A model generated the notes under the pieces. It worked only from the letters and a program-made list of their open reading frames with translations. It searched no databases and was not told the DNA's origin. The position numbers were made by a program, and so were the translations under genes. This document shows positions 54,478 through 60,499 of a DNA stretch of 64,000 bases, in pieces. The first letter of the stretch is position 1, and each line of letters opens with the position of its first letter. The stretch is taken from NCBI RefSeq assembly GCF_030013595.1, contig NZ_CP122768.1; one strand, given 5' to 3'. Source of the DNA: Escherichia coli. Its GTDB lineage: Bacteria > Pseudomonadota > Gammaproteobacteria > Enterobacterales > Enterobacteriaceae.

Positions 54478-54705
54478 TCACTCATACGGGCCATGATGAA
54501 TGTCGATCGGCAGCAGTAAAGTATCAAAAACCAGGGAGAATGGCAGATCAAGGATCGTGACATAACGCCAGGCGGAGTCACGCACATCCCATTGCACACC
54601 GGGATAATATTGGTTGCCATGCCCCTGCCCCGGTATAGTGCGACTAATAATGCTGCCACAGCCACTCAGCAAGGTCACCATGATGCTCACCACAATTAAA
54701 CGCAT
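54478..54705 (-). CDS. yceK: YceK lipoprotein
   Basis: ORF 54478..54705 (-), 75 aa; lipobox LSGC; convergent with and abutting msyB. Confidence 0.85.
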   Translation of the reverse strand: MRLIVVSIMVTLLSGCGSIISRTIPGQGHGNQYYPGVQWDVRDSAWRYVTILDLPFSLVFDTLLLPIDIHHGPYE

Positions 54706-54731
54706 TTGATACCTCTTCCGTAAAAAAATAC

Positions 54732-54744
54732 CGGCATAACGCCG
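54732..54744. repeat. Left copy of the 13-bp IS4 target-site duplication
   Basis: cggcataacgccg immediately left of the IS4 left inverted repeat; identical copy at 56171..56183. Confidence 0.8.
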
Positions 54745-56170
54745 TAATGCCGATCAGTTAAGGATCAGTTGACCGATCCAGTGGCTGTGTAAGAATCCGG
54801 AAACGCTCACTTGTTTCCGGATTTTTTTATGCACATTGGACAGGCTCTTGATCTGGTATCCCGTTACGATTCTCTGCGTAACCCACTGACTTCTCTGGGG
54901 GATTACCTCGATCCCGAACTCATCTCTCGTTGCCTTGCCGAATCAGGTACTGTAACGCTACGCAAGCGCCGTCTTCCCCTCGAAATGATGGTCTGGTGTA
55001 TTGTTGGCATGGCGCTTGAGCGTAAAGAACCTCTTCACCAGATTGTGAATCGCCTGGACATCATGCTGCCGGGCAATCGCCCCTTCGTTGCTCCCAGTGC
55101 CGTTATTCAGGCCCGCCAGCGCCTGGGAAGTGAGGCTGTCCGCCGCGTGTTCACGAAAACAGCGCAGCTCTGGCATAACGCCACGCCGCATCCGCACTGG
55201 TGCGGCCTGACCCTGCTGGCCATCGATGGTGTGTTCTGGCGCACACCGGATACACCAGAGAACGATGCAGCCTTCCCCCGCCAGACACATGCCGGGAACC
55301 CGGCGCTCTACCCGCAGGTCAAAATGGTCTGCCAGATGGAACTGACCAGCCATCTGCTGACGGCTGCAGCCTTCGGCACGATGAAGAACAGCGAAAATGA
55401 GCTTGCTGAGCAACTTATAGAACAAACCGGCGATAACACTCTGACGTTAATGGATAAAGGTTATTACTCACTGGGACTGTTAAATGCCTGGAGCCTGGCG
55501 GGAGAACACCGCCACTGGATGATACCTCTCAGAAAGGGAGCGCAATATGAAGAGATCAGAAAACTGGGTAAAGGCGATCATCTGGTGAAGCTGAAAACCA
55601 GCCCGCAGGCACGAAAAAAGTGGCCGGGACTGGGAAATGAAGTGACAGCCCGCCTGCTGACCGTGACGCGCAAAGGAAAAGTCTGCCATCTGCTGACGTC
55701 GATGACGGACGCCATGCGCTTCCCCGGAGGAGAAATGGCGGATCTGTACAGTCATCGCTGGGAAATCGAACTGGGATACAGGGAGATAAAACAGACGATG
55801 CAACTGAGCAGGCTGACGCTGAGAAGTAAAAAACCGGAGCTTGTGGAGCAAGAGCTGTGGGGTGTCTTACTGGCTTATAATCTGGTGAGATATCAGATGA
55901 TTAAAATGGCGGAACATCTGAAAGGTTACTGGCCGAATCAACTGAGTTTCTCAGAATCATGCGGAATGGTGATGAGAATGCTGATGACATTGCAGGGCGC
56001 TTCACCGGGACGTATACCGGAGCTGATGCGCGATCTTGCAAGTATGGGACAACTTGTGAAATTACCGACAAGAAGGGAAAGGGCCTTCCCGAGAGTGGTA
56101 AAGGAGAGGCCCTGGAAATACCCCACAGCCCCGAAAAAGAGCCAGTAAGTTGCTTAACTGACTGGCATTA
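54745..56170 (+). mobile_element. Insertion sequence IS4 (complete, 1,426 bp)
   Basis: Terminal inverted repeats TAATGCCGATCAGTTAAG (54745-54762) and CTTAACTGACTGGCATTA (56153-56170; 16/18 match); single DDE transposase ORF; flanked by 13-bp direct repeats; the length equals canonical IS4. Confidence 0.9.
54829..56148 (+). CDS. insG: IS4 transposase (InsG-like, IS4-family DDE transposase)
   Basis: ORF 54811..56148 (+); ATG at 54829 ([20 protein letters not shown]...); IS4-family C-terminal Y..R..E signature (...[17 protein letters not shown]...). Confidence 0.9.
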
Positions 56171-56183
56171 CGGCATAACGCCG
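56171..56183. repeat. Right copy of the 13-bp IS4 target-site duplication
   Basis: cggcataacgccg immediately right of the IS4 right inverted repeat. Confidence 0.8.
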
Positions 56184-56204
56184 GTATTTTTATTGGCTCG
56201 TTGT

Positions 56205-56310
56205 TTTTGCCAGATGTGGCGTGAACGCCTTATCCGACCTACAAAATCTTGCAAAATCAACACATTGCAGGAGCGATGTAGGCCTGATAAGCGTAGTGCA
56301 TCAGGCAACT
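56205..56310. repeat. BIME (REP cluster) downstream of opgH
   Basis: gatgtggcgtgaacgccttatccgacctac and gtaggcctgataagcgtagtgcatcaggc REP units. Confidence 0.7.
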
Positions 56311-56316
56311 ACGTTT

Positions 56317-60499
<4,183 letters not shown>

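Follow-up and report, generated by a model that had tools for sequence, protein, structure and literature searches.

A recent IS4 insertion at a recurrently used, terminator-like target between yceK and mdoH in Escherichia coli

One insertion sequence interrupts the intergenic spacer between yceK and mdoH (opgH) in the Escherichia coli DNA analysed here, a stretch of 64,000 nucleotides of contig NZ_CP122768.1 hereafter called the window. How did the element come to lie there, how old is it, and why does it sit at this particular nucleotide? The explanation that we favour, and consider very probable as a whole, is a recent transposition of IS4 into the terminator-like structure of mdoGH, a near-ideal target that is recurrently hit, with probably mild consequences for the host.

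Identity and anatomy of the element

Assignment to IS4 was judged by a length of about 1,426 bp with more than 95% full-length nucleotide identity to the type copy, imperfect 18-bp terminal inverted repeats starting TAATGCC, a target duplication of 11-13 bp, a single ORF combining DDE_Tnp_1 with an IS4 N-terminal domain, the Y(2)R(3)E(6)K signature (defined in PMC2266710) and insertion in the preferred target, an A-tract / ~20 bp / T-tract palindrome. All of these were found. An earlier note, made from the letters alone, had described a complete IS4 between opgH and yceK with 18-bp inverted repeats carrying two mismatches and a perfect 13-bp target-site duplication, and each of these features was recovered (Table 1). 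Over its 1,426 bp the element aligns without gaps to the annotated IS4 of K-12 MG1655 and is identical to it at 1,419 positions (99.5%). The left inverted repeat agrees with the reverse complement of the right one, TAATGCCAGTCAGTTAAG, at 16/18 positions, the two mismatches being adjacent (positions 8-9), and both ends are those of the K-12 copy. Both K-12 and the nearest relative, in which the site is empty, carry the duplicated segment once. A 13-mer would match exactly at both ends of a 1,426-bp element by chance with a probability of ~4^-13.

The K-12 copy (insG, b4278), type element of the IS4 family and member of the IS4 subgroup, has the same length and the same 18-bp inverted repeats, and shares the single DDE transposase with Nterm_IS4 and DDE_Tnp_1 domains and the YREK motif. 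In contrast to the window copy, it lies between yjgZ and nanX, differs by seven nucleotide substitutions and is flanked by a duplication of 12 bp instead of 13 bp. Both lengths fall inside the 11-13 bp range, and other IS4 copies show 11, 12 and 13 bp.

The description of the transposase ORF as intact held in that the frame is open over 439 codons (ATG at 54829, stop at 56146-56148), but the product is three residues shorter than the 442-aa InsG of K-12: a C1403A change converts codon 440 from TCA to TAA and removes the final S-V-A. Reading from an upstream TTG at 54811, which PGAP-style annotation would take as the start, gives 445 aa. The remaining substitutions relative to K-12 are four synonymous and two missense changes (G304A and R326L), and the nucleotide states behind the latter (995C and 1061T) recur among many of the natural alleles compared. 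Profile searches returned Nterm_IS4 (PF13006, 7.5e-33) and DDE_Tnp_1 (PF01609, 1.1e-31) from Pfam, and NF033592 from NCBIfam (304.5 bits; cutoff 115). Residues 307-321, around the catalytic glutamate, hold the Y(2)R(3)E(6)K signature. A sequence search among solved structures with the IS4 transposase yielded no relative at E <= 0.01.

Upstream of the transposase gene, the consensus scan picked out one sigma-70 promoter-like site where 1.7 were expected in shuffled sequences, which argues only weakly for a promoter. A stem-loop follows, with a 15-bp stem and then UUUUUUU; 2 nt separate its end from the transposase ATG. In form it is like an intrinsic terminator or an RBS-occluding structure, and it has the A-run/hairpin/T-run shape of IS4's own targets. 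Judged from its predicted fold, it is probably an attenuator or an RBS-occluding structure. The placement of stem-loop and U-run between the promoter-like site and the ATG would fit a tightly controlled expression of the transposase.

Table 1. Positions of the IS4 element, its parts and its neighbours in the window
Feature	Position	Strand	Basis and remarks
yceK (YceK/YidQ lipoprotein)	54478-54705	-	ORF; annotation of orthologous loci; start codon 39 bp from IS4 left end
yceK-proximal half of the split, predicted mdoGH terminator, including T-run	54720-54744	-	folding
Target-site duplication, left copy, CGGCATAACGCCG	54732-54744	.	identical to right copy; top of the former terminator-like hairpin
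IS4, complete	54745-56170	+	identity to MG1655 IS4
Left inverted repeat, TAATGCCGATCAGTTAAG	54745-54762	+	inverted-repeat search; comparison with right end
Sigma-70 promoter-like site TTGACC-16-AAGAAT with TG, candidate transposase promoter	54769-54796	+	consensus scan only
IS4-internal stem-loop then U-run	54791-54826	+	-19.9 kcal/mol, z = -6.3; 0/200 shuffles fold as well
Transposase gene (insG homologue), 439 aa + stop	54829-56148	+	ORF; translation; profile matches
Right inverted repeat, CTTAACTGACTGGCATTA	56153-56170	+	inverted-repeat search
Target-site duplication, right copy, CGGCATAACGCCG	56171-56183	.	identical to left copy
mdoH-proximal half of the split, predicted terminator	56171-56195	-	folding: -8.9 kcal/mol, no U-tract, then IS sequence
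mdoH/opgH	56317-58860	-	ORF; annotation of orthologous loci; stop codon 146 bp from IS4 right end

The target and its recurrent use

In K-12 MG1655 the site is empty: yceK and opgH are separated by a 172-bp gap in which the target occurs once, and the annotated IS4 lies at 4,502,090-4,503,515, between yjgZ and nanX. The statement in the earlier note that K-12 carries its IS4 at another locus was thus correct. Removal of the element and of one copy of the duplication reconstructs the target of the window as GTAAAAAAATAC[CGGCATAACGCCG]GTATTTTTATT, with the duplicated segment in brackets. Read on the mdoH-sense strand, this empty site folds as AAAAAUACCGGC-GUUAU-GCCGGUAUUUUU followed by more U (-16.4 kcal/mol, z = -4.6). 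We interpret it, on the strength of this fold, as a probable bidirectional, intrinsic-terminator-like structure downstream of mdoGH, which would end 9 nt before the yceK Shine-Dalgarno sequence. A consensus terminator scan of the empty site did not flag the intact mdoGH structure, extension of the stem swallowing the A- and T-tracts; explicit folding was used for terminators in its place. In the spacer between IS4 and the mdoH stop codon, the Rfam sRNA model ES036 (CssrF) matches window positions 56243-56285 (+), scoring 45.7 bits where the gathering score is 37.6. The match sits on a REP-like palindrome and is probably a repeat rather than a dedicated sRNA gene.

Mayaux et al. reportedly proposed, in 1984, the consensus AAA-N20-TTT for IS4 targets. 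The K-12 IS4 site fits this pattern. Our search of the literature available to us returned nothing specific on the consensus itself or on IS4 at the pheS attenuator, at yceK/mdoH/opgH or at terminators. A 'spectacular apparent insertion specificity' has been described for the IS4 subgroup (PMC2266710). IS231A, another member of the IS4 family, selects palindromic targets in which a GC-rich core is duplicated over about one helical turn, with A/T tracts outside (De Palmenaer et al.). Compared with IS231A and with the AAA-N20-TTT rule, what is given here is a quantification over 65 sites, in which the targets appear as terminator-like hairpins whose top becomes the duplication.

These sites were gathered through IS4 left ends, by exact 30-mer scans of species-representative genomes and of metagenomes. 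The genome scan gave 18 loci (16 from Kosakonia oryziphila, one from Photorhabdus and one apparent contamination), with no E. coli locus among its exact matches, and the metagenome scan gave 83; de-duplication left 65 distinct left flanks. They carry A at -20 to -17 (89% A at -18), a C-rich stretch from -14 to -9 and G at -4 and -1. AAAA occurs within -25..-14 in 45/65 sites, compared with 2/65 at control offsets (p = 2e-16). GC content reaches 66% in the last 16 nt, which correspond to the duplicated region, and this segment is far more prone to form hairpins than controls from upstream (p < 1e-6). All nine sites for which both flanks were available reconstruct to an A-run and a hairpin, followed in six of them by a T-run. 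On these sequence statistics, a preference of IS4 for A-tract/hairpin/T-tract sites is well supported.

To score the window, a leave-one-out position model was built from the other 64 sites and applied symmetrically, with 11-13-bp duplications, to the window without its IS (62.5 kb). The true site with its true 13-bp duplication ranks first of ~187,000 candidates with 27.3 bits; the best other locus reaches 19.9 bits, on a background with a mean of -19.4 and a standard deviation of 8.1. The insertion therefore lies exactly where IS4 is expected to land. The fourth rank is held by the same site with the 12-bp duplication observed in strain VL46 (see below). The next-best predicted targets, at 15100, 21575 and 48830 in IS-less coordinates, all have the A-run/hairpin/T-run form and are candidate future landing sites; that near 21575 coincides with the terminator region of the SraB sRNA.

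The scans also brought up IS4 outside Escherichia and some rearranged copies. In the draft genome of Kosakonia oryziphila REICA_142 (loci L022-L037), 16 contig ends run into an exact IS4 left end and stop there; the flanks are all different, and most show the A-run/hairpin target: an expansion of IS4 in this species. Photorhabdus khanii NC19 carries an IS4-like element of 1,411 bp (L038:1089-2499) with the same first 30 nt, an 11-bp duplication and an A-run…T-run site. The 265-bp contig NZ_BPQU01000128.1, assigned to Methylobacterium mesophilicum NBRC 15688, has an IS4 left end after the exact K-12-specific yjgZ-side flank …GTTACAAACACCAGAACCAAGAT, and looks like E. coli K-12 DNA contaminating a draft assembly. 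Four metagenome contigs (L066, L104, L113 and L116) hold a full-length IS4 whose flanks share no duplication, and L067 and L075 have a left flank whose reverse complement forms the right flank in L113. Inversions, or recombination between copies of IS4, are suggested for the four contigs.

Is the site used in other E. coli strains? Of 5,426 complete E. coli genomes, 2,685 contain IS4, with a median of one copy and a maximum of 32. The yceK-mdoH site is filled in 17 of the 5,426, 13 in the orientation of the window (identified with junction queries) and four in the opposite one (identified with a synthetic junction query). All 17 are inserted at the same nucleotide, 16 with the 13-bp duplication and VL46 with a 12-bp one. 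Compared with the window, they have 22-88 mismatches over 3 kb of left flank and IS4 alleles that are 3-17 nt apart from its own; right-flank counts for VL46 and RMDEC465 were left out on account of small indels that put them out of register. Unlike the window copy, all 17 (e.g. those of 32-4, MS 21-1, 789, P27_L1_05.20 and VL46) encode the full-length C-terminus. Orientation and duplication length unambiguously require a minimum of three independent insertions, and the alleles, which fall into about ten allele/orientation groups, suggest about ten. Part of the allelic differences could come from gene conversion among IS copies instead of separate insertions. The yceK-mdoH site is thus an IS4 hotspot, and the view of the earlier note that the insertion is strain-specific stands only in part: IS4 is absent from this position in K-12 and in the closest genome, but the term is too strong for a nucleotide that independent events have filled in 17 of 5,426 genomes. 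The near-ideal fit of the site to the IS4 preference (A-tract, ~20 bp with a GC-rich palindrome, T-tract) would explain both why it was chosen here and why the same nucleotide was hit independently, in both orientations, in other lineages.

The junction queries also matched STEC346, CE0026a and 19KM1766N, where positions 1-286 of the right junction align at 88.9% and the IS4 copy lies away from yceK-mdoH; another IS4 copy therefore adjoins a sequence resembling the REP-containing, mdoH-proximal spacer in these strains.

A second common IS4 site lies in the aroA-ycaL intergenic region. It was read in SMS-3-5 (L021:3029-4454), where IS4 is flanked by a 13-bp duplication within the target AAAAAAAACGC[CGGCAATGTGCCG]ACGTTTT, of near-identical architecture. 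Many D/F-type genomes (IAI39, CE10 and others) give partial junction matches with the flank length and identity of SMS-3-5, the locus itself having been read in SMS-3-5 only.

Age and origin of the insertion

The flank of the window is collinear in 5,419 of the 5,426 complete genomes, a collection to which the source strain does not belong. Two isolates from UK pigs, HCP5S3_I2 and LCP30S3_I5, match the window best. The nearest complete genome is that of HCP5S3_I2, where the site is empty and matches the reconstructed 600-bp empty site exactly. Its flanks are 100% identical to those of the window over 3,584 bp on the left, and differ by two mismatches in 6,430 bp on the right (99.97%); over the whole window, identity is ~99.95%, close but not clonal. 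HCP5S3_I2 also carries an IS1397 (IS3 family) between yceF and rluC (L123:20896-22327), absent from the window at ~22328-22331, and the two sequences are at least two IS events apart within 64 kb.

The exact 1,426-bp allele of the window, premature stop included, is found at 100% identity in HCP5S3_I2 and LCP30S3_I5, carried by the chromosome and by a plasmid of 82-96 kb; the chromosome record has IS4 at five places, and the identity refers to the best of these. Copies 100% identical to it also occur in the pig-associated strains UMNF18, P13-6, ETEC1747 and ETEC1716. A local donor therefore exists in the near relatives of the window. The perfect duplication and the zero divergence from sister copies point to a young event, and the insertion is derived and recent. 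The suggestion of the earlier note that it looked recent is borne out by the empty site in HCP5S3_I2, the near-identical flanks and the same allele elsewhere in the lineage.

We infer the following course of events. An IS4 copy resident on a chromosome or plasmid of the pig-associated E. coli lineage would have transposed into the mdoGH terminator-like structure, with a 13-bp staggered cleavage by its DDE transposase, centred on the hairpin and spanning its top; repair would then have duplicated CGGCATAACGCCG. The view of the earlier note that the element is potentially active is plausible: the new insertion itself, and the presence of the identical allele at more than one chromosomal and plasmid position in related strains, speak indirectly for it, against the loss of three C-terminal residues from the transposase.

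Three other histories were weighed against de novo transposition and rejected as the main explanation. The filled allele could have been imported, by homologous recombination or transduction, from an E. coli already carrying IS4 at yceK-mdoH. Recombination is frequent in E. coli and the 17 other filled genomes provide natural donors, but the flanks of the window are identical or almost identical to those of the empty-site relative (0/3,584 bp and 2/6,430 bp mismatches), and differ from every filled genome by at least 22 mismatches per 3 kb. In addition, the window allele (168T, 348T, 1403A) occurs in 0/17 filled sites and is identical to copies in the lineage of the relative. Absence of the allele from the other filled sites and the relative-like flanks therefore argue for de novo transposition over import, which is already largely refuted and which we regard as highly improbable.

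An insertion ancestral to the lineage, lost from the nearest relatives by precise excision, is just as improbable in our estimation. The closest genome is ~0.04% divergent and not clonal, so that a loss is conceivable on phylogeny alone. Against this, DDE insertion sequences rarely excise so precisely that one perfect copy of the target is restored, 5,409/5,426 genomes are empty at the site, and the perfect duplication together with an IS identical to other copies of the lineage speaks for youth. Insertion sequences are, finally, a classic cause of misassembly, and a single sequence represents this locus, so that an IS4 repeat placed at the wrong position by the assembler had to be considered. 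A misjoin would not duplicate 13 bp of flanking target perfectly, nor would it land exactly on the best-scoring IS4 target of the window, and the same nucleotide is filled in 17 independently assembled complete genomes; such an artefact is the least probable of the three, and its chance is negligible. Recent transposition of IS4 into the site is retained.

Probable local effects and meaning of the insertion

Insertion splits the terminator-like structure in two. On the side of yceK, pairing of the IS terminus (…AUCGGCAUUA) with the duplicated segment is predicted to yield a hairpin of -10.9 kcal/mol at 54725-54760 (-), followed by the original U-run and lying shortly before the yceK Shine-Dalgarno sequence. 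On the mdoH side, the hairpin of the mdoH-sense strand is shortened and its U-run lost, whereas the + strand keeps hairpin elements and a T-run facing out of IS4. Transcription of mdoGH may thus continue into IS4, in the antisense direction of its transposase gene. Before yceK, the IS end and the duplication would re-form a hairpin and U-tract, leaving a terminator-like element in place, so that the local transcription pattern would probably be little changed, the insertion tolerated and its consequences mild, as far as folding models can indicate. The same insertion is tolerated in 17 natural isolates. The phenotypic effect of the insertion is probably little.

The finding is already known in kind: the element is IS4 itself, the same insertion is annotated in 17 RefSeq genomes, and the selectivity of IS4 has been noted before. 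What is added here, namely the count of genomes filled at the hotspot, a profile over 65 sites, a connection with terminators, the prediction of the site by a leave-one-out model and the 3-aa truncation, is confirmatory or incremental, and the terminator-targeting pattern is a modest by-product, partly known. A wider reading, which we offer tentatively as possible rather than probable, is that IS4 is a dedicated terminator seeker that would read A-tract, GC-hairpin and T-tract, duplicate the hairpin top and regenerate hairpin and U-tract. Its insertions would then be near-neutral, 'safe-haven' events at predictable hotspots (yceK-mdoH, aroA-ycaL) across Enterobacteriaceae, with the 3-aa-truncated transposase still active.

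As a young event, the insertion is a useful strain marker, which separates the isolate from its closest sequenced relatives. IS4 sites are highly predictable: a simple position model picks one site in 62.5 kb, and that site has been reused independently in nature. This can serve in annotating and anticipating IS4 hotspots at terminators between genes, and in keeping shared IS4 positions from being over-read as shared ancestry in typing schemes.
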